A DNA stretch of 64,000 nt from Alphaproteobacteria bacterium (GCA_041396705.1 JAWKYB010000012.1:933-64932), one strand, 5' to 3'. Positions 4,492 to 52,274 are shown, counted from the stretch's first letter. Notes: generated by a model from the sequence alone, not told the origin. A program made the numbers and translations.

Positions 4492-7005
4492 ATGCCTGAG
4501 GTCGCATTTCTGGTCATTGCCGTGGCGCTGCTGCTGTTGCTGGTGGCGGTGCTGCAGCCGCTGGCCGAACAGCTGGCCGTGCCGCACACGGTGCTGCTGG
4601 CGGTGTTCGGGCTGGCCCTGGGCTCGGTCATCGTGCTCGGCGTCGCCTGGTCGCCGGACGGGTTCGGCGGCACGCTGCTGCACGCGTTGAGCGGCATCGC
4701 GTTGCCGTCCGACGCACTGACCTATCTGTTCCTGCCGACACTGCTGTTCGAGGTGGCGCTGGCGCTGAACGTGCGCCGGCTGCTCGACGATTTCTGGGCG
4801 ATCTTCGTACTCGCCGTGGTCGCCGTCGTTGTGACCACGCTGGCCATCGGCTTCGGCCTGGGCATGGCCTTCGACCTGGCCTTGTCGGTGTGCCTGCTGA
4901 TCGGCGCGATCGTCGCCACGACCGACCCGTCGGCGGTGGTCGGCCTGTTCCGCGATGTCGGTGCGCCGCGCCGGCTCGGCATCCTGATCGAGGGCGAAAG
5001 CCTGCTCAACGACGCCGCCGCCATCGCGCTCTATGCCATATTCTTCAACCTGACGCTCTACCTCGGCGCGGCGGACTGGGGCGACGTCACCTTCATGTTC
5101 AGCGTCGACCTGGCCGGCGGCCTGGTCGTCGGCGTGGCCTGTGCCTGGGTGGCGTGCCTGATCCTGCCGCATCTCCATGGCATGCGCTATGCCGAGGTCA
5201 CGGTCACGCTGGCGCTGGCCTATCTGGCCTATGCCGTCGCCGAGGCCGTGATCGGCGTTTCGGGGGTGGTCTCTGTGGTCGCGGCCGGGCTGTTCGTCGG
5301 CTCCTGGGGGCGCACGCGCATGACGCCGGAAAGCTGGCCGGTCATGCTCGACGTCTGGAGCCAGGTCGCCTACTGGGCCAGCGGCCTGGTGTTCCTGCTG
5401 GCGGCGATGGCGATGCCGCGGCTGGTCAGCACGATCGGCTGGGCCGAGGTCGCCATGCTGGCGGTGATGGTGGCGACGGCCTTCGCCGCGCGCTGGGCGG
5501 TGCTGGCGGTGTCGTTCCCGCTGATCGCACGCTTCCGCATGGGCCAGCGGCTGTCGCGCGGCTTCATGATCGCGATCTGGTGGGGCGGCGTGCGCGGCGC
5601 GCTGACGCTGGCGCTGGCCCTGGCGGTGACCGAGCACCCGGAGATCGACGCGGAGACGCGGCGGCTGGTCGCGACGCTTGCCACCGGCTTCGTGCTGTTC
5701 ACCCTGTTCGTCAACGCCACCACGCTGCCGGCGATGATCCGCTGGCTGGGGCTGACCAGGCTCAGCCGGGCGGACCGGCTGGTGCGGGCCCGTGCGATCG
5801 ATCTTGCCCTCGACAAGGTGCAGGACGACCTGCGCGAGATCGCGCGGCGCTACGGCGTCGAGCCGGCGATCACCAGCGCGGTGTGCGCCGTTTTCGACGG
5901 CCGCCGCACCCAGCTGGAGGGGGAGGCGGAGACCGTCGCCGGCCTGCCGCTCGACGACCGCGTCTATATCGGGCTGACCGCGCTCGCCGCGCAGGAGCGG
6001 CAGGTCTACGAGGACCTGTTCGCCCAGCGCATCGTGTCGCGGCACACCAACCGCGCCCTGCTTGCCTTCGCCGGCCGGCTGGCCGACGCGGTCAAGGCCG
6101 CCCGGCTCGACGGCTACGAGGCGGCGGTGGACCGCTCGCTGCGCTTCTCGCCGGCGATGCGGATCGCGATCTGGATCAACCGGCGCCTGCATGTCGAGCG
6201 GATGCTGTCGCGCGTGCTGGCCGATCGATACGAGACGCTGCTGGCGATGCGGGTGGCGGTGCGCGAGCTGGCCGCCTTCGCCCGCGGGCGGCTGACCGGC
6301 ATGACCGGCGCCGAGGCGCAGGCTGTACTCGACCGCACCCTGCAGGCGCGGATGCTGCGCATCGCCACCGGCCTGCAGGCGCTGGAGCTGCAGTATCCCG
6401 ACTATGCGATGGCGCTGAAGACGGTGCAGATGAACCGGATCGCCATGCGCATGGAAGATGCCGCCTATCGCGCGCTGCTCGACGACGCCATGATCGGCCA
6501 CGAGGTCCACACCACCCTGATGCGCGACTGGCGTTCGCGCTGGGCGCGGGCCGAACGTCGCCCGCGGCTCGACGTGTCGGCGCCGGTCGAGGAGCTGATC
6601 ACACGGGTGCCGCTGTTCGCCGATCTCGACCCGGCGCAGCGGCGGGGGCTGGCGGCCCTGCTGCGCAAGCGGCTGATCATGCCCGGCGAGCGTATCGTCA
6701 CCGCCGGCGAGCGCGGCGACGCCATGTTCTTTCTGCTGTCCGGCGCCGTCGAGGTCAGCGGCGGGGATGCCGCGACCACACGCCTCGGCTCCGGCGAGTT
6801 CTTCGGCGAGATCGCACTGGTGTTCAATCGCCCGCGCACCGCCGACGTCACCGCGCTCGGCTATTGCGAGGTGCTGGTGCTGCGCAGCCGCGACTTCTCC
6901 GCTTTCCTCGGCACCCAGCCGGAGTTGCGCGAGCATGTGTTCGAGGTGGCCCGCCGCCGCCTGGAGCAGAATCTGGGCATGGAAGAACAGGCCGCTGGCG
7001 CTTGA
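4492..7005 (+). CDS. Na+/H+ (cation:proton) antiporter, CPA1 family, with C-terminal cyclic-nucleotide-binding domain
   Basis: 837 aa. About 12 TM helices, N-terminal, typical of NhaP/CPA1. C-terminal cNMP-binding fold (GERIVTAGERGDAMFFLLSGAVEV...FGEIALVFNRPRTADV). Confidence 0.85.
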   Translation: MPEVAFLVIAVALLLLLVAVLQPLAEQLAVPHTVLLAVFGLALGSVIVLGVAWSPDGFGGTLLHALSGIALPSDALTYLFLPTLLFEVALALNVRRLLDDFWAIFVLAVVAVVVTTLAIGFGLGMAFDLALSVCLLIGAIVATTDPSAVVGLFRDVGAPRRLGILIEGESLLNDAAAIALYAIFFNLTLYLGAADWGDVTFMFSVDLAGGLVVGVACAWVACLILPHLHGMRYAEVTVTLALAYLAYAVAEAVIGVSGVVSVVAAGLFVGSWGRTRMTPESWPVMLDVWSQVAYWASGLVFLLAAMAMPRLVSTIGWAEVAMLAVMVATAFAARWAVLAVSFPLIARFRMGQRLSRGFMIAIWWGGVRGALTLALALAVTEHPEIDAETRRLVATLATGFVLFTLFVNATTLPAMIRWLGLTRLSRADRLVRARAIDLALDKVQDDLREIARRYGVEPAITSAVCAVFDGRRTQLEGEAETVAGLPLDDRVYIGLTALAAQERQVYEDLFAQRIVSRHTNRALLAFAGRLADAVKAARLDGYEAAVDRSLRFSPAMRIAIWINRRLHVERMLSRVLADRYETLLAMRVAVRELAAFARGRLTGMTGAEAQAVLDRTLQARMLRIATGLQALELQYPDYAMALKTVQMNRIAMRMEDAAYRALLDDAMIGHEVHTTLMRDWRSRWARAERRPRLDVSAPVEELITRVPLFADLDPAQRRGLAALLRKRLIMPGERIVTAGERGDAMFFLLSGAVEVSGGDAATTRLGSGEFFGEIALVFNRPRTADVTALGYCEVLVLRSRDFSAFLGTQPELREHVFEVARRRLEQNLGMEEQAAGA

Positions 7006-7653: not shown

Positions 7654-9708
7654 TCACGGCTGCTGCTGGGTCTCGACGAAGACGTAGCCGTATTGCGACC
7701 GGAAGTCGGGCGTCAGCGCCCGGCGCTGCAGTTCCTCTTCCAGCGCGGCGAGATAGCCTTCGGCCAGTTCCACGCGCGGGCGCGGCGGCGACAGGTCGAA
7801 CAGCGGTGCGCTGGTCGACAGCGTGACCACCATGCCGGTACCGTAGGGCGGGCCGGCCGGCACCGCGATCGAGCCCGGCTCGGCCGCGCTGATCGGAATG
7901 GTGGTGGCCGCCGCCGGGTAGTAGTTGGCCGGCGTCGGGTTCAGCTCGCTCGGCAGCAGGTGGACCACCTCGCCGTTCGGCTTGAAGAAGTCGATGTAGA
8001 CGTGGGCGGGGTAGTCCGGCGTCTCGACATAGACCTCGAGATACTGCGCTTCCGCGAAGGCCGCCCGGCCGCCCTGGATCATCCCGAACAGCGGGTCGGG
8101 CCGCAGTTCGGGCGGCAGGTGGTCCATCGGTTCGGCGTCGGGGGCGATCTCGGCGCCGGCGCCGGCATAGACACCGAGCCCGCTGCAGAGGCCGTCGCCG
8201 ACGACCACGACATTGTCGTCGGCGACGCCGGCGATGCCGTTGATCTCCGAAAGCCGCTGGCGCACTTCGGCCTGCTCGTCGCTGGACGTCATGAAGCCGC
8301 GCACGGCGACGCTGCCGTCGACGGTCACGTCGGCGTCGAGATGGCCGCAACTGATCTCGGCCAGGATGGCGGCAATCGCGCTTTCGGGCCCTTCCGGCCG
8401 GCCGGTCTGCACGGCGGCGAGCGCATCCTCGATCCGCGGGTCGTAGCGCGGCGGCGCGATCGGCTGCACCCATTCGACCGGGCCCGGCGGCGGGACGAAC
8501 TGCTCCGGCGGCGGCGGCTCGTCCAGCGCCGGCGGCTCCGGCGTAGCCGGCTCAGGCGGCAGTGCGATCGCCAGCGGCGCCTCCGGCTGCGTCTCGGTCG
8601 CGGCCTCGTCGGGCGTCGGCGCCGCCGGAACCGGCGAGGCCTCGGGCACGGCGGGCGCCGGGGCCAGGCTGCGCACGAAGGGTTGCGGCGGCTCCAGCGA
8701 CGCCAGCTGGGTGCCGGGCAGCGCAACCGGCTCCAGTGCGGCCGGCTCGGGTGCCGCCGGAGCCGGCGGGGCGACCAGGGCGGGAACCGGCGGGGCCGGC
8801 GTCGTTTGCTGCGCCGGCACGGCGGCGACGGGCTCGACGAATGCCGGCAGGGCCGGCGCCGGCACGGCGTCCGCCTGGGCGTCGACAGCGGCCGTCGGCG
8901 CGGCCGGTGCGTCGATCGGCGGCAGCGGCTGCAGCGGCGTCGGCGCGGCCTGGGCCGGCGGTGGGGACTCGGCGACGACTGGCACGTCGTCGACCGCCGC
9001 CGGCGGCGTTTCGAACGGCTCGATGCCGCGCGGTCGCTCGATCTGCTCCGGCAGGCCGTCGGACCGTTCCGGCAGGTCCAGTGCGGCCAGCTGCTGTGGC
9101 GGGGCGGCCGCAGGCGTTTCGATCGGCGGCACCGGCTGCGGGTCGTCGGGCAGCGGCTGCGGCGCCTCGGTCAGCTCCGGCGGCGGTTCCTCCAGCTCAT
9201 CGGGCACCGCTTCCGGCGCCGCGTCGGGCGGCGGCGCGTCGTCCGTCGGCGCGCGTTCGGCGAGCTCTTGCGGCGGGGCATAGCTGCGCCCGGCCATCGG
9301 GCCGCTGTCCAGGCCGCGGGTGTCGAGCACGATCTCGATGCCGGCGACGTCGCCGCCGCCCTGCAGCACCGCGCCGGCCGCCACCAGGGCCCCGCCGGCC
9401 AGCAGCACGCTGTGGAACGCGACCGAAGCGGTGAGCGCGAGCCGGAGCCGCCGTGCCTCGCGCGTGCGCGCGGGCGGCAGCCGCAGCAGCGGGCCGCCGA
9501 ACAGCGCATGCCAGATCGCCGCCGGCAGGGATTGCTCGTGCTGTGGGGACCGGGTCGTCACGCTTCTTCCATGGCCAAGGACGGCGGGCGCGAGGCCGCG
9601 CCAACCGGTGCATACACGATGCACGCTGGCTTCGAAATACGGCAGGAGTGCGGAGGTTCCGCGCCGCGAGCGGCCCGCGGGCTTGCTTTGTCGCACCGCT
9701 TGGCCCAC
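7654..9708 (-). CDS. proline/alanine-rich membrane-anchored protein with C-terminal BON-like and DUF4384-like regions
   Basis: Single TM (LALTASVAFHSVLLAGGALVAAGAVL), then about 350 aa of PxP/AP-rich low complexity, then a structured C-terminus (VTVDGSVAVRGFM...; YIDFFKPNGEVVHLLP). Start uncertain; the first about 70 aa of the ORF may not be translated. Confidence 0.55.
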   Translation of the reverse strand: MGQAVRQSKPAGRSRRGTSALLPYFEASVHRVCTGWRGLAPAVLGHGRSVTTRSPQHEQSLPAAIWHALFGGPLLRLPPARTREARRLRLALTASVAFHSVLLAGGALVAAGAVLQGGGDVAGIEIVLDTRGLDSGPMAGRSYAPPQELAERAPTDDAPPPDAAPEAVPDELEEPPPELTEAPQPLPDDPQPVPPIETPAAAPPQQLAALDLPERSDGLPEQIERPRGIEPFETPPAAVDDVPVVAESPPPAQAAPTPLQPLPPIDAPAAPTAAVDAQADAVPAPALPAFVEPVAAVPAQQTTPAPPVPALVAPPAPAAPEPAALEPVALPGTQLASLEPPQPFVRSLAPAPAVPEASPVPAAPTPDEAATETQPEAPLAIALPPEPATPEPPALDEPPPPEQFVPPPGPVEWVQPIAPPRYDPRIEDALAAVQTGRPEGPESAIAAILAEISCGHLDADVTVDGSVAVRGFMTSSDEQAEVRQRLSEINGIAGVADDNVVVVGDGLCSGLGVYAGAGAEIAPDAEPMDHLPPELRPDPLFGMIQGGRAAFAEAQYLEVYVETPDYPAHVYIDFFKPNGEVVHLLPSELNPTPANYYPAAATTIPISAAEPGSIAVPAGPPYGTGMVVTLSTSAPLFDLSPPRPRVELAEGYLAALEEELQRRALTPDFRSQYGYVFVETQQQP

Positions 9709-9797
9709 CTTCCCGGCGCCGGTGACGGGCCCGATGGCGCGCCGATTGCAGCGTGCGAACGGGGCCGAACCGCTGACTGCGACCCCGGGGGAAAGCC

Positions 9798-12700
9798 ATG
9801 TCCAAGGCTGCAGCGCGCCAGCAAGCGCCGACGACCGTTGCCGACCGAGGGTCGGACGAGGAGCTGCCGGCCCGGCTGCTGGCGATCGCGGAGGCGGGCG
9901 CGCCCGGCGGTGAGCTGCCGTCCGCCGCGGGCGCCTTCGGGCGAGCCGCGCCGGCCGAAAGCCTGGTGCTGCGGCGCCAGCTGGAGGACCTGCTCGACGG
10001 CTTCCGCATGGCGGCCGAGGCGGACCCCTACGGCAACCCGATCCAGCGGCTTGCGCTGGAGATCACCCGCATGCTGGAGCGCGGCCAGATCGGGCTCGCC
10101 CTCGTCGACGGGCTGGTCCAGCTGCTGTGTGCCGAGGCCTTCGCCGTCCGCGCCGAGCGCCTTGCCGGCTATCTCGGCAACCGCGACCCGGAGCGCAACG
10201 ATGCCGCGTTGCGCGACCTGATCCGCCGCGCCGCCCTGGAAAAGGGGACCGGCGACCAGCCGATCAAGGCGCCGTTCACCAGCTTCAAGCGGCGCATGGA
10301 GGCGGCGCCGTTCGGCGTGGTCTTCACGGCCCACCCGACCTTCTCGCTGGCCGAGCCGCTGCTGGTCTGCCTTGCCGAGCTCGGTGCCGGCGTCGGGGCC
10401 GACGGCCGCCGGCTCGACGACGGGGCGGTCGACAACCGCCTGCGCCAGCTGCTGGCCGCCGACCACCGGCCGGAACCCTCGATCGACCTTGCGCTGGAAC
10501 ACCGGTTGTCGCTGGTCGCGATCGCCAATGCCCGGTCCGCGCTGCAGCGGGTCTATCGCATCGTGTTCGAGGTTGCCGCCGAGCTCTATCCCGACAACTG
10601 GCGCCAGTTGCGGCCGCGCCTGGTGACCCTGGCCAGCTGGGTCGGCTACGACCTGGACGGACGCTCGGACATCCAGTGGTTCCACACCTTCAAGAAGCGG
10701 CTGCTGGTGCAGATCCGCCAGCTCGAACACTACTCCGCCTCCGCCCGCCAACTGATCGAGGCCCATGCCCGGGCGCCGCGCGACGAGGATCTGCGCCGGA
10801 CGCTGGAGCTGTTCGACACCCGCATCGCCCTGACCCTGCGCCACGCCCGCGACGAGCAGGCGGCGTTCGACGCCATCGCCGGGCGCGACGACGCCGATCT
10901 GGTGCGCGGCATCGCGCAGCGGATGTACGCCGAGCGCGGCGAGCGGCTGATCGAGGTCGGCGCGCTGATCGACCTGGTCGACCGGGCGGTCGGCCTGACC
11001 CGCGCCGCGGACGGCGTCGCCGCGCTGTGCGTGCTGCGGGCGGAGATCGCCAATTTCGGGCTGAGCATGGCCGAGACCCACGTCCGGCTGAACGCCAGCC
11101 AGCTGCACAACGCCATCCGCAAGGCGGTCGGGATGGAAAGCCCGCCGGACGACCCGACCAGCCGCAACACCTATCTGGCCGCCGTCAACGCGATGATCGA
11201 CACCGTCGAGCCGGTGACCATCAACTTCGGCTCGGTGATGGCGGAGCGCGCCTCGGCCAAGCGGCTGTTCATGATCGTCACCCAGATGCTGAAATACATC
11301 GACCGCACCAACCCGGTGCGCTTCCTGATCGCGGAGTGCGAGACGCCGTTCACCGTGCTGGCGGCGCTGTACTACGCCAAGCTGTTCGGCATCGAGCAAT
11401 CGATCGACATCTCGCCGCTGTTCGAGACCGAGGCGGCGCTGGAGCGCGGTCACGAGATCGTCGAGGAACTGCTCGCCCAGCCGCACTATGTCGACTATGT
11501 GCGGCAGCGTGGCCGGCTGTGCATCCAGACCGGCTTTTCCGATGCCGGCCGCTATCTGGGCCAGACCGCGGCATCGGTGGCGATCGAGCGCCTGCAGGGG
11601 CGGGTCGGCGCCACCATGGCCGCACATGGCCTGTCGGATGTCGAGCTGCTGATCTTCAACACCCACGGCGAGTCGATCGGCCGCGGCGGCCATCCCGCCA
11701 GCTTCGAGGACCGGTTGGACTATGTCTGCAGCCCGCATGTGCGCGAGGCGCTGGCTGAGGCCGGCATCGCGCTGAAGCAGGAGGTCAGCTTCCAGGGCGG
11801 CGACGGCTATCTCTACTACGTGACCCCGGCGATCGCCTTCACCTCGCTGTGCCGGGTGATCGAGCATGTGCTCGGTCCGCTGCCGGCGAGCGAGGGGCTG
11901 GGCGACCCGTTCTATGCGGCGCAGGCCCACATGCAGGAGTTCTTCACCGCGGTGGAGCGCTTCAACGCCGAGATCATGGACGATCCGGATTATGCAGCGT
12001 TGCTGGGGGTTTACGGGCCGAACCTGCTGTACAGCACCGGCAGTCGCGCGGTGCGGCGGCAGCACGACTTCGGCGACGATGCCGCGAGCCTGCATCCGTC
12101 GCAGATCCGCGCGATCCCGCACAATGCGATCCTGCAGCAGATGGGCTTCCTGGCCAACACGCTGGGCGGGCTCGGCCGGGCGATCCGGCGCGATCCGGGC
12201 CAGTTCCGCGCGCTCTATGCGGATTCGGCGCGGTTCCGTCGGTTGATCGGCATGATCGAATATGCCCGCGCCTTTTCCAGCCTGGATGCGCTTAAGGCCT
12301 ATATCGACACGGTCGACCCCGGGCTGTGGCTGCTGCTGGCGGCGCACGAGACCGACCGCGATCGCCGCATCGCCGCCCGCGCGGTCGCGACGCACCTGGA
12401 GCGCAGCCGTACCCACGAGCGGTTGGTCCGCATCTACCGCAAGCTCAGCCGCGACTGCGCCGACCTGGACGACGCCCTGGCCGACCTGCGCGCGGACGTG
12501 GTGCCGGCGGGCCATGCGCTGGGAGAGGCGGAGCGGCGCGGCAACCTGGAGCTGCTGCACGCGCTGCGCGTCGCGCTGGTCCAGCAGCTCTGCCGGCTGG
12601 CCGTGCACATTCCCGACTTCAGCGCCCAGCATGGCACCACGCCCGAGGCGCTGGTCGCCCAGATCCTGCATCTCGACGTGGAGCACGCGGTCGATCAGCT

Positions 12701-12893
12701 GGAGCGCATCTTCCCGCGCACCGATCCGACCGCCACCGACCAGGGCTTCGGCGAGCCGGCGAGCTATCGCAGCGAGGAGACGCAGTCCTATCTGCGCGAG
12801 CACATCGAGATCTTCCAGCCGATCGACGCGCTCTATCGCCTGATCCGGCGGATCAGCAGCGGCGTTATCTACGACATCGGCGCGCTCGGCTGA
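9798..12893 (+). CDS. phosphoenolpyruvate carboxylase-like protein (divergent PEPC superfamily member)
   Basis: 1031 aa. PEPC-like blocks VFTAHPTF, THGESIGRGGHP and GFSDAGRYLGQTAASVAIERLQ, but each deviates from the canonical VLTAHPTE / FHGRGGxxGRGGxP / GYSDSxKDxG. Extra N-terminal extension of about 150 aa. Confidence 0.7.
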   Translation: MSKAAARQQAPTTVADRGSDEELPARLLAIAEAGAPGGELPSAAGAFGRAAPAESLVLRRQLEDLLDGFRMAAEADPYGNPIQRLALEITRMLERGQIGLALVDGLVQLLCAEAFAVRAERLAGYLGNRDPERNDAALRDLIRRAALEKGTGDQPIKAPFTSFKRRMEAAPFGVVFTAHPTFSLAEPLLVCLAELGAGVGADGRRLDDGAVDNRLRQLLAADHRPEPSIDLALEHRLSLVAIANARSALQRVYRIVFEVAAELYPDNWRQLRPRLVTLASWVGYDLDGRSDIQWFHTFKKRLLVQIRQLEHYSASARQLIEAHARAPRDEDLRRTLELFDTRIALTLRHARDEQAAFDAIAGRDDADLVRGIAQRMYAERGERLIEVGALIDLVDRAVGLTRAADGVAALCVLRAEIANFGLSMAETHVRLNASQLHNAIRKAVGMESPPDDPTSRNTYLAAVNAMIDTVEPVTINFGSVMAERASAKRLFMIVTQMLKYIDRTNPVRFLIAECETPFTVLAALYYAKLFGIEQSIDISPLFETEAALERGHEIVEELLAQPHYVDYVRQRGRLCIQTGFSDAGRYLGQTAASVAIERLQGRVGATMAAHGLSDVELLIFNTHGESIGRGGHPASFEDRLDYVCSPHVREALAEAGIALKQEVSFQGGDGYLYYVTPAIAFTSLCRVIEHVLGPLPASEGLGDPFYAAQAHMQEFFTAVERFNAEIMDDPDYAALLGVYGPNLLYSTGSRAVRRQHDFGDDAASLHPSQIRAIPHNAILQQMGFLANTLGGLGRAIRRDPGQFRALYADSARFRRLIGMIEYARAFSSLDALKAYIDTVDPGLWLLLAAHETDRDRRIAARAVATHLERSRTHERLVRIYRKLSRDCADLDDALADLRADVVPAGHALGEAERRGNLELLHALRVALVQQLCRLAVHIPDFSAQHGTTPEALVAQILHLDVEHAVDQLERIFPRTDPTATDQGFGEPASYRSEETQSYLREHIEIFQPIDALYRLIRRISSGVIYDIGALG

Positions 12894-12945
12894 ACCGGAG
12901 AACCGACCCGCGGCTTGACGACCGGCGCGGCGATGCGGCGTTCTA

Positions 12946-13755
12946 TTGCCCGGGGTCGCGCGGAGCCGGGTGGGGACGGGCATGAACGCCAGGCAGGTTG
13001 AAGACCAGAAGCGGAAGAAGCGGCGCGGCGGGGTGTTCTGGCGCCTGCGGCGCTGGTTCATCGCCGGCCTGCTGGCGACGGCGCCGATCGGGCTGACCGT
13101 CTGGCTGGTGCTGGCCATCGTCGACTGGATCGACCGGGCGGTGAAGCCGTTGCTGCCGCCGGGTTGGTGGCCGAGCCAGTATCTGCCGTTCGAGCTGCCC
13201 GGCGTCGGCCTGGTGGTGGCGCTGGTCGGCATCACCGTCATCGGCGCGCTGACCACCGGCTATCTCGGCCGGCTGCTGCGCAACAGCTACGAGGGGCTGC
13301 TCGGCCGTCTGCCGGTGGTGCGCGGCATCTATGCCTTCCTCAAGCAGGTTCTGGAGATGGTGTTCCAGAACCAGTCGGGCTCGTTCCGCGAGGTCGTGCT
13401 GTTCGAATATCCCCGCCACGGCACCTGGACGCTCGGCTTCATCACCGGCGTCACCCAGGGCGAGGTGCAGAGCCTGACCGAGGACGAACTGGTCAATGTG
13501 TTCGTGCCGACGACGCCGAACCCCACCTCCGGCTTCTTCCTGTTCGTGCCGCGCAAGGAACTGGTGGTGCTCAGCATGTCGGTGGAGGAGGGCATCAAGA
13601 TGGTGGTCTCCGGCGGCATGGTGACGCCGGAGGACAAGCGCCCGGAGGAGGAGCGCGCCCAGCCGACGGTGGCCTCCTACCGCGACGGCGAGGCGCCGCG
13701 AATTGCCGCGCCCGGCGAGGACGCGGACGGGCAGGCCGAGAAACCGGCGGCCTGA
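12946..13755 (+). CDS. DUF502 domain-containing membrane protein
   Basis: Two N-terminal TM helices plus the conserved DUF502 core (GRLPVVRGIYAFLKQVLE...FVPTTPNPTSGFFLFVPRKE). Alternative start at 12982 (MNARQ). Confidence 0.75.
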   Translation: MPGVARSRVGTGMNARQVEDQKRKKRRGGVFWRLRRWFIAGLLATAPIGLTVWLVLAIVDWIDRAVKPLLPPGWWPSQYLPFELPGVGLVVALVGITVIGALTTGYLGRLLRNSYEGLLGRLPVVRGIYAFLKQVLEMVFQNQSGSFREVVLFEYPRHGTWTLGFITGVTQGEVQSLTEDELVNVFVPTTPNPTSGFFLFVPRKELVVLSMSVEEGIKMVVSGGMVTPEDKRPEEERAQPTVASYRDGEAPRIAAPGEDADGQAEKPAA

Positions 13756-13775: not shown

Positions 13776-15872
13776 TCAGCCGGAACGCAGCAGCGGAACC
13801 GCGGCGTCGCGCTCGAACAGGTACAGCAGCACCCGCAGCGCCTGGCCGCGCGGCGAGGCCAGCTCGGGATCGCGTTCCATCGCCAGCCGCGCGTCGTCGC
13901 GAGCCACCGGCAGCAGATCGGCGTGCGCCATCAGGTCGGCCACGCGCATCTGCGGCATGCCGGCCTGTTTCACGCCCAGCAGTTCGCCGCTGCCGCGCAG
14001 CCGGAGATCCTCCTCGGCGATGCGGAAGCCGTCGTCGGTCTCGCGCATCATCGCCAGCCGCGCCCGCGCGGTTTCGCCCAGCGGCGCCTGGTAGAGCAGC
14101 AGGCAGGTTCCGGGCCGGTTGCCGCGGCCGACCCGGCCGCGCAACTGGTGCAGCTGCGCCAGCCCGAAGCGTTCGGCAAGCTCGATCACCATGACGGTGG
14201 CGTCCGCCACGTCGACGCCGACCTCGATCACCGTGGTTGCGACCAGCACGTCGAGGGCGTCCGGGTCGTCGCGCGGCAGTGCCAGGCGCTGCACCGCCCG
14301 GTCCTTCTCCGGGCCCGACAGCCGGCCGTGCACAAGGCCGATCCGGTGCCGCAGCACGCGCGCCACCATCGCGTGCCGGTCGGCAGCGGCGGTCAGCGGC
14401 GACTGCTCCGACTCCTCGACCAGCGGGCACACCCAATAGACCTTGGCGCCCTCGTTCACCGCCCGGTCGATGCCGGCGACCACCTCGTCGAGCCGGTCCA
14501 TCGGCACGGCACGGGTGTCGACCGGCGCGCGTCCCGGCGGCTTCTCGTCCAGGATCGACTGGTCCATGTCGCCGTAGAAGGCCAGCGCCAGCGTGCGCGG
14601 GATCGGGGTTGCGGTCATCACCAGTGTGTCGGCGCGCTCGCCCTTGCCGGCCAGCAGCAGCCGCTGGTGCACGCCGAAGCGGTGCTGCTCGTCGATGATG
14701 ACCAGGGCAAGGTCGTGGAACGCCACCTCCTCCTGGAACAGCGCATGGGTGCCGATGGCGATGGCGGCGCGCCCGTCGGCGAGCCGGCCCAGCGCCTCGC
14801 GGCGCTCGCGGCTCTTGTCGCGCCCGGTCAGCACCGCCGCGGTCACCCCGCAGGCCGCCGCCAGCGGCGCGATGGTCTGGAAGTGCTGGCGGGCGAGGAT
14901 CTCGGTCGGCGCCATCAGCGCGGCCTGGCGCCCCGCCTCTGCCGCATTCAGCATCGCCATCAGCGCGACCGCTGTCTTGCCGCTGCCGACGTCGCCCTGC
15001 AGCAGCCGCAGCATCCGCTCGTCCGAGGCCATGTCGGCGACGATCTCGCCGATCGCGCGCCGCTGCGCGCCGGTGAGCGCGTAGGGCAGGGCGGCTGCGG
15101 CCTTCGCGCGCAGGCTGCCGTCGCCGGCGGTCGGCCGCCCGCGCTGCGTCCGCTGGCGGGTCCGCACCACCATCAGCGCCAGCTGGTTGGCAAGCAGCTC
15201 GTCATAGGCCAGCCGCAGCCGCGCCGGCGCGCGCGGATCGATCTCTTGCGGCGAACCCGGCGCGTGCACCGCCTCCAGCGCGGCCCGCCAGTCCGGCCAG
15301 CGGGTCCGCTGCCGGTGATGCGGCTCCAGCCACTCCGGCAGCGCGGGCGCGACCTTGACCGCCGCCTGCACCAGCTTGTGCAGGGTCTTCGGCGACAGGC
15401 CTTCGGTCATCGGATAGACCGGCTCGACCAGCGCCAGCCGGTCGAGCTCGGCCGGGTCGATGACATGGTCGGGATGCGCCATCTGCAGCTGGTCGTTGAA
15501 CGAATCGACCCGGCCGCTGACGATGCGCTCGGCGCCGACCGGCAGCAGGCGCTGCAGGTAGTCGGGCCGCGCGCGGAAGAAGACCAGCGCGATCTCGCCG
15601 CTGTCGTCGCCGCAATAGATCCGATAGGGCTGGCGCGACGTCGCCGGCGGGTGATGCTCCAGCACGCGCACCTGCAGGGTGACGACCGTGCCGATCCGCG
15701 CCAGCGAGACCTGCGGCCGGTCGCGACGGTCGATCACCTGGGTCGGCAGGTGCCACAGCAGGTCGATCACGCGTGCGATGCCCAGGCGCTCCAGTTTCGC
15801 CGCCACGGCCGGGCCGACGCCGGACAGGCGGTCGATCGGCTTGAACAGGTCGAACAGGATCGGCGGTCGCAT
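13776..15872 (-). CDS. recG: ATP-dependent DNA helicase RecG
   Basis: 699 aa from ATG at 15872 (MRPPILFDLFKPIDRLSGVGP...). Wedge domain, DEAH helicase motifs (GDVGSGKT, DEQHRFG). The 849-aa ORF in the track is an upstream-extended artefact. Confidence 0.95.
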   Translation of the reverse strand: MRPPILFDLFKPIDRLSGVGPAVAAKLERLGIARVIDLLWHLPTQVIDRRDRPQVSLARIGTVVTLQVRVLEHHPPATSRQPYRIYCGDDSGEIALVFFRARPDYLQRLLPVGAERIVSGRVDSFNDQLQMAHPDHVIDPAELDRLALVEPVYPMTEGLSPKTLHKLVQAAVKVAPALPEWLEPHHRQRTRWPDWRAALEAVHAPGSPQEIDPRAPARLRLAYDELLANQLALMVVRTRQRTQRGRPTAGDGSLRAKAAAALPYALTGAQRRAIGEIVADMASDERMLRLLQGDVGSGKTAVALMAMLNAAEAGRQAALMAPTEILARQHFQTIAPLAAACGVTAAVLTGRDKSRERREALGRLADGRAAIAIGTHALFQEEVAFHDLALVIIDEQHRFGVHQRLLLAGKGERADTLVMTATPIPRTLALAFYGDMDQSILDEKPPGRAPVDTRAVPMDRLDEVVAGIDRAVNEGAKVYWVCPLVEESEQSPLTAAADRHAMVARVLRHRIGLVHGRLSGPEKDRAVQRLALPRDDPDALDVLVATTVIEVGVDVADATVMVIELAERFGLAQLHQLRGRVGRGNRPGTCLLLYQAPLGETARARLAMMRETDDGFRIAEEDLRLRGSGELLGVKQAGMPQMRVADLMAHADLLPVARDDARLAMERDPELASPRGQALRVLLYLFERDAAVPLLRSG

Positions 15873-15944
15873 GGCGGTCCGGTGATGCGGCATTGGCGGG
15901 GCGTCCTGCTGGCTATATACCCTGCGGGCCTGAGGAGCACGAAG

Positions 15945-16219
15945 ATGGCGGACGCCGCCGACCTGGATATCCGCCGCAAGCGGCTGATCTATCGCAGCGA
16001 GCACACCGGCACGCAGGAGACCGACCTGCTGCTCGGCCAGTTCGCGCGCGCCCATGTGCCGGGTTTCGACGCGGTCGAGGTCGCCGAGCTGGAGCGCCTG
16101 CTCGACGCCAGCGACCCGGACCTGTGGCTGTGGCTCACCGGCCGGGCCGACCCGCCGCCGGCGCTCGACGGCCCGGTGTTGCGTCGCCTGCGCGCCCATC
16201 GCTACCGGCCTGCCGACCG

Positions 16220-16223
<4 letters not shown>
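15945..16223 (+). CDS. sdhE: FAD assembly factor SdhE (succinate dehydrogenase assembly factor 2, DUF339)
   Basis: 92 aa. RKRLIYRSEHTGTQETDLLLGQF signature. Classic recG-sdhE-mfd neighbourhood of alphaproteobacteria. Its stop overlaps the mfd GTG (GTGA). Confidence 0.8.
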
Positions 16224-19710
<3,487 letters not shown>

Positions 19711-19714
<4 letters not shown>

Positions 19715-25649: not shown

Positions 25650-25734
<85 letters not shown>

Positions 25735-32496: not shown

Positions 32497-32572
32497 GGGC
32501 GGTTAGCTCAGCTGGCAGAGCATCTCGTTTACACCGAGAGGGTCGGCGGTTCGATCCCGTCACCGCCCACCA
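32497..32572 (+). tRNA. tRNA-Val (anticodon TAC)
   Basis: 76 nt. GGGCGGTTAGCTCAGCTGGCAGAGC... Anticodon loop CTCG-TTTACAC-CGAG. T-arm GGTTCGATCC. Encoded CCA. Confidence 0.85.
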
Positions 32573-51365: not shown

Positions 51366-52174
51366 CAGCGCCCGCCCGCCGCGGCGCGGCCGGGCGCCGG
51401 TGCCGCATGACCGGCCAGCTGCGCCAGCAGCGCGCCCTGCTGGCGCAGCAGGATCGGGTCGTCCACCGGCCGCGGCCGCGCGCCGGGCGGGCCGATCGGC
51501 GGCGCGAAGCGCGCCGGCTGGCCGCTGAGCACCAGCACGCTGTCGCCCAGCCGCAGCGCCTCCAGCGGGTCGTGGGTGATCAGCAGCACCGTGCGGCCGT
51601 CCAGCAGCGTCGCCGCCAGGTCCTGCAGCTGGGCGCGGGTGACGGCGTCCAGCGCGGAGAAGGGCTCGTCCATCAGCACGATGGGCCGGTCTTCCATCAG
51701 CGTGCGGGCCAGCGCCACCCGCTGGCGCTCGCCGCCCGACAGTTCCGCCGGCCTGGCGTCGGCCCGCCGCGCCAGCCCGACGCGGCCGAGCAGGTCGCGC
51801 GCGCCCGCCCGGTCGGGGCGTTCGCCGCGCAGCCGCGCGCCGATGACAACGTTGTCGACCGCGCTCGCCCAGGGCAGCAGCAGGTCGGCCTGGGCCATCC
51901 AGGCGACCCGGCCGGCCAGCGGCCGGCCCTCGTCGTCGGCGACCTCGGCCCCGGGCTGCAACCCGGCGATCATGCGCAACAGGCTGGTCTTGCCGACACC
52001 GCTGGGGCCCAGCATGGCGGTCCAGCGCCCGCCCGGCAGGTGCAGCGACAGGTCGTCGAACAGCACCGTGCCGCCATAGTCCAGGTGCGCACGGCGCATG
52101 TGCACGCCCGGCGCGGCCGGGTTGCGAAGCGGGGTGATGTCGGACGGCTGGTCGACTTCGGTGTGCAACGCCAC
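51365..52174 (-). CDS. ABC transporter ATP-binding protein
   Basis: Walker A GPSGVGKTS. Signature LSGGERQRVALAR. Walker B VLMDEPFSALD. Start uncertain (possibly the internal Met MRRAHL...). Confidence 0.85.
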   Translation of the reverse strand: MALHTEVDQPSDITPLRNPAAPGVHMRRAHLDYGGTVLFDDLSLHLPGGRWTAMLGPSGVGKTSLLRMIAGLQPGAEVADDEGRPLAGRVAWMAQADLLLPWASAVDNVVIGARLRGERPDRAGARDLLGRVGLARRADARPAELSGGERQRVALARTLMEDRPIVLMDEPFSALDAVTRAQLQDLAATLLDGRTVLLITHDPLEALRLGDSVLVLSGQPARFAPPIGPPGARPRPVDDPILLRQQGALLAQLAGHAAPAPGRAAAGGR

Positions 52175-52274
52175 TATTCCTACGCCGGTGCGAACCGGAT
52201 CAGGTTCAAGGGGTCGCTTCTCTCACGAAGCCTCTCAGCCGCCCGGGCGGCTCCCCCTAGTGCTGGAAAAGAGG

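Follow-up and report, generated by a model that had tools for sequence, protein, structure and literature searches.

A deep clade of phosphoenolpyruvate carboxylase-like proteins with alternative active-site signatures in Alphaproteobacteria

Few enzymes of carbon fixation and anaplerosis have been studied as intensively as phosphoenolpyruvate carboxylase (PEPC, EC 4.1.1.31). Its catalytic motifs are considered universal, from E. coli to maize. Mutagenesis has identified H138 and R587 of the E. coli enzyme as essential for the carboxylation step. Substitution of H579, and of the maize equivalent of K546, is tolerated with reduced or partial activity, and we know of no mutational test of R581. 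The C-terminal NTG of canonical PEPC packs near the active site and the aspartate site. Archaeal-type PEPC (PepcA) is a precedent for a very divergent sequence of the superfamily that is still a true phosphoenolpyruvate (PEP) carboxylase. The 'bacterial-type' PEPC (BTPC) of plants and algae is a divergent paralogue that occurs beside the standard PEPC and forms hetero-oligomers with the plant-type enzyme; to our knowledge it keeps the canonical catalytic motifs and the (R)NTG C-terminus. Ppc1 and Ppc2 of Methylosinus trichosporium OB3b are a differently regulated PEPC pair, and Ppc1 is a 'non-regulated' serine-cycle PEPC in which residues of the aspartate/malate site have been lost (PMC3615186).

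In the present study we describe a PEPC-like gene from Alphaproteobacteria bacterium, located in a 64,000-nucleotide stretch (GCA_041396705.1 JAWKYB010000012.1:933-64932) that is referred to below as the window. Its 1031-aa product is a remote PEPC homologue with a full-length PEPC fold, which matches PEPC far beyond chance. Sequence comparison indicates that it belongs to a coherent, strongly conserved and ancient clade of the PEPC family that has been evolving separately. Our direct observations concern the fold, the residue conservation, the structure of the clade and its co-occurrence with canonical ppc. The gene and its presumed translation signal are located as follows.

9798..12893, plus strand: divergent PEPC-like gene, complete with stop codon, 1031 aa (from the ORF list and Pfam PF00311)
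9787..9795, plus strand: purine-rich Shine-Dalgarno-like sequence GGGGGAAAG, immediately 5' of the ATG, read from the sequence

The gene is a first-ATG open reading frame (ORF) of 1031 codons, and its product is identical to NCBI MEZ5669121.1, deposited as 'MAG: phosphoenolpyruvate carboxylase [Alphaproteobacteria bacterium]' on a 195-kb contig. A search of positions 9500-13200 found no sigma-70-like promoter. A longer antisense ORF (9558..13256, minus strand) overlaps the gene, as is expected at ∼70% G+C, and all homology evidence is on the plus strand.

Fold and active-site residues

Simple sequence comparison detects only part of the relationship to PEPC. The PF00311 (PEPcase) match scores 74 bits against a gathering cutoff of 22.4 (E 8.6e-21), with a best stretch that covers residues 309-634 only, and phmmer matched the E. 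coli and maize enzymes among Protein Data Bank (PDB) sequences at only E ∼1e-10, over residues 500-635. Full-length homology was apparent in an alignment of profiles built from 38 clade members and from 11 diverse canonical PEPCs (Gamma-, Beta- and Alphaproteobacteria, Actinomycetota, Bacillota, Deinococcota, Bacteroidota and Halobacteria). Here hhalign aligned residues 44-968 to E. coli 20-879 over ∼800 columns with 99.9% probability (E 9.5e-33), at 18-19% identity between clade and canonical PEPC. An AlphaFold2 (AF2) model built from a 21-sequence family alignment adopts the PEPC fold (mean per-residue confidence, pLDDT, 82.9; pTM 0.87), and PEPC structures occupied 50 of the 50 top rows listed by Foldseek against the PDB, with template modelling (TM) scores of 0.53-0.71 and E down to 2.7e-22. 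The archaeal-type model PF14010 gave no match at E<=1, a threshold at which PF00311 was the sole Pfam model reported for this protein. PepcA, at ∼540 aa, is half as long, whereas the window's protein aligns along the entire bacterial/plant-type chain.

A preliminary description of this stretch had reported a 1031-aa product with recognisable PEPC blocks, and the ORF and its Pfam match bear this out. The strings it quoted, VFTAHPTF (aa 175-182), FNTHGESIGRGGHP (aa 620-633) and GFSDAGRY (aa 579-586), are all present. It had further described an N-terminal extension of about 150 aa as a possible carrier of a new specificity or a regulatory role. This proved wrong: TAHPT, which is at 138 in E. coli, is found at residue 179 here, and the 148 extra residues are spread over three regions, with ∼24 at the N-terminus, ∼65 internally and ∼59 at the C-terminus. 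The variable N-terminal part may be put at ∼25-45 residues. Since no such extension exists, it cannot be the bearer of a new function. The two termini lie outside the canonical alignment.

9798..9926, plus strand: variable N-terminal region (aa 1-43), ahead of the hhalign start at residue 44
12702..12890, plus strand: family-specific C-terminal extension (aa 969-1031) ending in GALG; hhalign ends at residue 968 (E. coli 879)

The N-terminal region is modelled with pLDDT <50 for aa 1-20, and the start M1 is the only family-invariant column ahead of P77. The C-terminal extension is conserved (F972, P973, F984, G985, A988, Y990, Y998, E1001, P1008, R1018, G1028 and G1031) and contains a long helix (998-1027) in the AF2 model. 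The C-terminal piece alone found no match to the canonical PEPC profile, and nothing in the canonical chain, with its NTG end, aligns to it.

Residues were mapped onto E. coli numbering through the hhalign alignment, and conservation was counted over the 38 clade members. The motifs of the window's protein are the following.

10326..10343, plus strand: TAHPTF motif (aa 177-182), in which the catalytic H138 is represented by H179 and E141 is replaced by F
10635..10670, plus strand: SWVGYDLDGRSD (aa 280-291), counterpart of SWMGGDRDGNP; W281 corresponds to W248, and W, D and G are kept
11076..11111, plus strand: THVRLNASQLHN (aa 427-438); R430 corresponds to the PEP-binding R396, with H428 in place of D394
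11415..11429, plus strand: PLFET (aa 540-544), in which L504 is kept as L541 and the metal ligand E506 as E543, conserved in 38/38
11526..11564, plus strand: QTGFSDAGRYLGQ (aa 577-589); the metal ligand D543 is kept as D582, with R585 for K546 and Q577 for M538
11655..11696, plus strand: glycine-rich lid loop in rebuilt form, FNTHGESIGRGGHP (aa 620-633); the essential R587 is kept as R629
11787..11807, plus strand: SFQGGDG (aa 664-670), counterpart of TEQGE; Q666 corresponds to Q613, with G668 for E615
12039..12059, plus strand: GSRAVRR (aa 748-754), a flexible loop; R750 corresponds to R699 and R754 to R703
12105..12140, plus strand: IRAIPHNAILQQ (aa 770-781); R771 corresponds to the PEP-binding R713, with H775 for W717

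Residues with established roles in catalysis are retained. The catalytic His (H179) is His in all 38 members, the metal ligands E543 and D582 are invariant, and so are the three arginines that bind the PEP phosphate (R430, R750 and R771). Around them the motifs read differently. E141 is replaced by F in 37 of the 38, and canonical GYSDSxK(D/E), with its K546, is absent from the clade, which reads G(F/Y)SD(A/S)GR with R585 in every member. Likewise, FHG(R/K)GGxxGRGGxP with both basic residues does not occur; the clade loop is F(N/D)THGESIGRGGHP, in which T, H, G and R are invariant. In this loop H623 stands for R581, T622 for G580, E625 for G583, H632 for A590 and N621 for H579, the last position being D or N across the clade. 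Family-specific conserved residues further include N432, Q435, H437 and N438 in THVRLNASQLHN and D669 in SFQGGDG. N776 and Q781 in IRAIPHNAILQQ are invariant, and just past this motif G783 stands for R725. The GSRAVRR loop has pLDDT <50 and is mostly without regular secondary structure in the AF2 model. The aspartate/malate site (K773, R832 and N881, with R587) is not preserved: K773 aligns with F826 and R832 with D886, in a region where the alignment is of lower confidence, and N881 is unaligned.

The canonical set has 76 invariant positions. For 35 of these, including H138, W248, R396, L504, E506, D543, R587, R699, R703 and R713, the canonical residue is found in at least 34 of the 38 clade members; another 29 are variable or unaligned. 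The remaining 12 are swapped for another, equally fixed residue (K546R, M538Q, G580T, G583E, E615G, D394H, S475A, W721L, R725G, F678Y, V259I and Q843R), and A590 and W717 have both become His. The preliminary description had held that each hallmark of PEPC is changed, which is true of the motif strings; the catalytically essential residues within them are mostly retained. Strict residue conservation down to 27% pairwise identity points to purifying selection on the active site, not decay.

Compared with E. coli Ppc (1FIY/1JQN) and maize C4 PEPC (1JQO/5VYJ/6V3O), which belong to PF00311, the clade has the same fold and order of motifs. It differs from them in the loss of the first GRGG (R581H, G580T, G583E), in K546R, D394H, W717H, R725G and E141F, in the lack of conserved K773 and R832, and in a 60-residue C-terminal extension that replaces NTG. 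The two groups thus have clean alternative signatures.

TAHPTE in canonical PEPC, TAHPTF in the clade
GYSDSxKD in canonical PEPC, G(F/Y)SD(A/S)GR in the clade
FHGRGGxxGRGGxP in canonical PEPC, F(D/N)THGESxGRGxHP in the clade
TEQGE in canonical PEPC, SFQGGDG in the clade
LRAIPWxFxWxQxR in canonical PEPC, (I/L)RAIPHNxILQQxG in the clade
C-terminal ...NTG in canonical PEPC, ...G-x-x-G in the clade

The clade and its coexistence with canonical ppc

A word-indexed search returned 920 relatives. The best 120 of these are 46-75% identical to the window's protein and ∼1000-1090 aa long, except for three of 701-984 aa, and their named sources are Azospirillum, Inquilinus, Dongia, Oleisolibacter, Arenibaculum and 'Rhodospirillaceae'. 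Searched exhaustively, the 50%-identity representatives yielded 323 clusters at E<=1e-30, continuous down to 27% identity; identity inside the clade spans 27-75%. In a scan of one genome per species with two patterns, one of them the SWVGYDLDGRSD motif, at least 573 species genomes encoded a relative. Carriers included Azospirillaceae (Azospirillum, Niveispirillum, Nitrospirillum), Dongiaceae, Inquilinaceae and Geminicoccaceae, as well as Magnetospirillaceae, Thalassospiraceae, Kiloniella and Novispirillum. The clade is found mainly in Rhodospirillales-type Alphaproteobacteria, with distant members in Sphingomonadales, Hyphomicrobiales (Phyllobacterium, Methylobrevis, Labrys, Prosthecomicrobium), Iodidimonas and Burkholderia.

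Pairwise identities are bimodal. Compared with one another, clade members show 34-75% identity, and are 34-42% identical over their full length even between orders, and canonical PEPCs are 30-39% identical among themselves, full length, between phyla. Clade and canonical proteins give local matches only, at 21-27% identity (E 1e-7 to 1e-15). Hundreds of alphaproteobacterial species, in Azospirillaceae, Dongiaceae, Inquilinaceae, Geminicoccaceae, Sphingomonadales and other groups, carry a protein with motifs that differ from those of canonical PEPC and are equally fixed. Public records label clade members 'phosphoenolpyruvate carboxylase', occasionally 'hypothetical protein', and the generic annotation hides a large and sharply defined clade. 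The most divergent subclade, represented by a JGI metagenome locus (L105 8001-10946) at 27-30% identity to the window's protein, reads TGHP for TAHP, PLFED, and LPRAIxHNG.

Canonical ppc and the clade's variant occur together in at least two organisms. A canonical PEPC of Azospirillum halopraeferens, WP_029009201, was recovered with the A. brasilense protein as query and is present as a longer gene call on the Logan contig SRR896286_14. The variant of the same species, WP_051340604, is on SRR896286_109 and in GCA_000429625.1, so the isolate (DSM 3675) has both types. On plasmid pTomTYG74a of Sphingobium sp. TomTYG74 (AP027342.1), canonical ppc (121566-124214) and the variant (912898-915651) share one replicon. 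These two cases imply that the clade is a separate paralogous lineage, and it is not merely 'the ppc of Rhodospirillales'.

Searching plasmid and chromid records with E. coli Ppc by tblastn revealed canonical ppc on chromids of A. brasilense, A. argentinense, A. lipoferum 4B, Azospirillum sp. B510, A. ramasamyi and Skermanella. The proteins are 35% identical to E. coli Ppc over 99% of its length. The Azospirillum ppc is ∼72% identical to PEPCs of the betaproteobacterial Rhodocyclaceae, Azospira and Zoogloeaceae, a likeness that suggests horizontal transfer. Core Azospirillum species are absent among the best 80 variant loci, where genera of lower identity are present. This is compatible with acquisition of the canonical gene and loss of the variant in core Azospirillum, and such a displacement would argue for overlapping function. 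The canonical ppc of A. brasilense Sp7 is on plasmid p3 (L086 2923-5730).

Among known paralogues, BTPC resembles the clade as a divergent protein that coexists with standard PEPC and, as far as is known, differs from it in its canonical motifs and (R)NTG end. Serine-cycle PEPCs, too, are of a second type and may accompany a regulated anaplerotic ppc, and some distant clade members lie in C2/oxalate-type contexts with sucCD-like genes. We considered whether the clade is itself the serine-cycle PEPC, as a 38% tblastn match in Methylobacterium bullatum, a sucC-sucD-PEPC order in Phyllobacterium and the Methylosinus pair (PMC3615186) had suggested. This candidate was rejected: the M. bullatum copy is outside any serine-cycle cluster, and a PEPC of that setting is fully canonical. 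The latter, from plasmid pAM01 of Aminobacter sp. MSH1, has all canonical motifs (TAHPTE, GYSDSNKD, FHGRGGSVSRGG, TEQGE and IPWVFAWSQNR), is 30-35% identical to canonical PEPCs over its full length and clusters with them; it gives a weak local match to the window's protein and none to the Phyllobacterium and Sphingobium variants. This places the present clade on another branch, a much deeper one. The 120 best relatives of the Phyllobacterium protein include no Methylobacterium, Methylosinus or Hyphomicrobium, neither of the first two genera was named among the matches listed (three of the four lists carried source names or titles), and no C1 or serine-cycle genes neighbour the gene in the window. 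The Aminobacter PEPC, which ends in GWTG, looks like a serine-cycle type with an altered aspartate-site residue. It lies on pAM01 (L098 1-13455) after N-methylglutamate-pathway genes (a glutamate-synthase-like gene, glnT and genes for four sarcosine-oxidase-like subunits) and is followed by glyA.

Function of the variant

The best explanation for the gene is that it encodes a functional, divalent-metal-dependent enzyme that would use PEP. Most probably it still carboxylates PEP, yielding oxaloacetate. By homology, R430, R750 and R771 (E. coli R396, R699 and R713) would hold PEP and E543 and D582 (E506 and D543) the metal, W281 and L541 would shield the enolate, and the carboxyphosphate step would depend on H179 (H138) and the lid-loop R629 (R587). 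The bicarbonate/carboxyphosphate side of the pocket is rebuilt (R581H, K546R, G580T, G583E, A590H, D394H, W717H and R725G). The control apparatus would differ as well, with K773 and R832 not conserved, NTG unaligned and a conserved C-terminal extension of 60 residues added. On account of these two differences, we favour the reading that the clade represents a genuine PEPC of a second type with different bicarbonate handling and regulation, to which we assign a probability of roughly 0.58; substrate, product and regulatory difference are what we infer here. Such a variant may work beside canonical ppc in some bacteria and possibly instead of it in others.

Several observations weigh against a genuine PEPC. 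NF000584, the ppc equivalog model by which NCBI names ppc, gives the protein 70.8 bits, below the curated cutoff of 815, and our literature search found no clade member that has been characterised or assayed. Position 581, which is R or K throughout the canonical set, is H in 38/38 clade members, and the 12 fixed swaps affect positions that are invariant elsewhere. Five His residues conserved in the clade (H428, H437, H623, H632 and H775) are foreign to canonical PEPC and are located in motifs that build the canonical active site. The NTG tail has no counterpart, the ∼60-residue extension ending G-x-x-G instead. Co-occurrence with canonical ppc in A. halopraeferens and Sphingobium indicates, moreover, that the variant is not simply redundant there, or is kept for a different job. 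In favour of a genuine PEPC are the fold, the strictly conserved active-site residues, the size of the clade, gene contexts that agree with oxaloacetate formation and the precedent of the Methylosinus pair. Likewise in its favour, H579 and the maize equivalent of K546 tolerate substitution, so that neither of these two altered positions is known to be indispensable.

Gene order around distant members of the clade bears on these alternatives.

Sphingobium: 2-hydroxyacid dehydrogenase, APH-type kinase, enolase (true equivalog), FAH-family protein, variant
Burkholderia pyrrocinia: RraA/oxaloacetate-decarboxylase-family protein, variant, glyoxylate/hydroxypyruvate reductase
Phyllobacterium: oxlT, ADP-forming acyl-CoA ligase, sucC, sucD, variant, with abutting coding regions
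Methylobrevis: MFS transporter, PAS protein, family III CoA-transferase, variant
TGHP-subclade member (L105, contig of ∼1.8 Mb): variant adjoining argH and an argG-argF-argD-argB-argC cluster

All these contexts are compatible with conversion of PEP to oxaloacetate, and none proves it. The Phyllobacterium order is that of a P. zundukense plasmid (L089 1-10814), on which a thiamine pyrophosphate (TPP) enzyme, oxlT, an ADP-forming acyl-CoA ligase, sucC/sucD-like genes and the variant lie together. The variant is translationally coupled to sucD there, and the set could be an oxalate/C2 assimilation module that uses it.

The clade might alternatively have been neofunctionalised, so that it binds PEP and metal and has a second substrate, or an outcome, other than bicarbonate to oxaloacetate. 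For example, the phosphoryl acceptor might be a different anion, CO2 might be activated at a new His-rich site, or PEP might undergo controlled hydrolysis or phosphotransfer. We regard this as unlikely. Clade-wide replacement of the pocket's bicarbonate side, in which E615G joins the swaps listed above, agrees with such a change, as do the several new conserved His, Asn, Glu and Asp residues and a conserved C-terminal extension without canonical counterpart. Canonical PEPC can itself take formate in place of bicarbonate, and contexts related to oxalate or formate occur in Phyllobacterium (oxlT and acyl-CoA ligase) and Methylobrevis (MFS transporter and family III CoA-transferase). The variant also shares a genome, and in one case a replicon, with canonical ppc. 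However, all residues known to be needed for the PEPC reaction proper are retained, the subclade of the window's protein has no conserved partner gene that would point to a new pathway, and the contexts with enolase, hydroxypyruvate reductase and an oxaloacetate-active family fit ordinary conversion of PEP to oxaloacetate. In addition, paralogous PEPCs with identical chemistry and different regulation are already known (PMC3615186). In a specific and equally tentative form of the proposal, the PEP/metal half would be kept and the bicarbonate half would be a His/Glu-rich pocket (H428, H437, H623, E625, H632, H775 and D669) under a new C-terminal domain, with a chemistry not described for the PEPC fold. 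A different acceptor or form of inorganic carbon would explain why the variant is kept next to canonical ppc.

That the gene is the organism's sole housekeeping ppc, a fast-evolved orthologue without a special role, seems improbable. No canonical ppc or other second PEPC-like gene was found within the 64-kb window, where the gene stands alone amid housekeeping genes (recG, mfd-like), and the presence of chromid ppc in core Azospirillum, coupled with absence of these species from the best 80 variant loci, hints at displacement between the two types. On the other hand, A. halopraeferens DSM 3675 and Sphingobium pTomTYG74a each carry both types, and a clade of such depth (27-75% internal identity), with fixed motifs of its own, is no recent fast-evolving offshoot. 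The preliminary description had called the protein a neofunctionalised paralogue rather than the housekeeping ppc. Its paralogous status holds, given a separate lineage, a score far below the ppc equivalog cutoff and co-occurrence with the canonical gene; neofunctionalisation is not shown, the PEP-binding, metal-binding and catalytic His/Arg residues being invariant and the gene contexts of distant members fitting PEP to oxaloacetate chemistry. A catalytically inactive or regulatory PEPC-like subunit would fit the loss of R581, K546, H579 and the canonical C-terminus and the co-occurrence with canonical ppc, but is very improbable, since invariant metal ligands, PEP-binding arginines, catalytic His and lid Arg in 38 divergent members are not expected of a pseudoenzyme, and the clade is widespread, including on a contig of ∼1.8 Mb.

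If the variant is a true PEPC of a second type, R581, K546, the first GRGG and the NTG tail would be shown to be dispensable, and the clade would offer engineers a scaffold that is by nature insensitive to aspartate and malate. Otherwise, many soil and plant-associated bacteria have an anaplerotic step mis-assigned in their metabolic reconstructions, and a new PEP-dependent reaction is still to be discovered.

Gene neighbourhood in the window

A nitroreductase gene (plus strand) and a 684-aa proline-rich ORF on the opposite strand lie upstream of the PEPC-like gene. Directly 3' is a gene for a DUF502 membrane protein, as the preliminary description had noted, across a gap of ∼90 bp without a terminator-like site. 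A functional link between the two genes was rejected: DUF502 and the proline-rich ORF are syntenic in just the 3 closest relatives of 84 loci. A conserved operon partner in Rhodospirillales-type loci was also rejected, the commonest neighbour family occurring in 12 of ∼80 loci. A stand-alone position without conserved neighbour is as expected for a gene of central metabolism. The flanking genes and other features of the window are listed below.

12982-13755, plus strand: DUF502 membrane protein
7654-9708, minus strand: proline/alanine-rich ORF (684 aa) without Pfam match, in the window's most G+C-rich stretch (0.76)
13776-16325, minus strand: recG, confirmed by Pfam
15893-19714, plus strand: long ORF, mfd-like (transcription-repair coupling factor), read from the translation alone
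4492-7005, plus strand: 837-aa fusion of a Na+/H+ exchanger domain with a cyclic-nucleotide-binding domain at the C-terminus
25650-25734, plus strand: tRNA-Leu(TAG)
32497-32572, plus strand: tRNA-Val(TAC)
52160-52267, minus strand: TPP riboswitch (72.9 bits)

The three closest relatives (L002, L006 and L007) have a conserved counterpart of the C-terminal ∼270 aa of the proline/alanine-rich ORF upstream of their PEPC-like gene. recG and the mfd-like ORF are divergent, and their calls overlap at the 5' ends; the true starts are probably further in.

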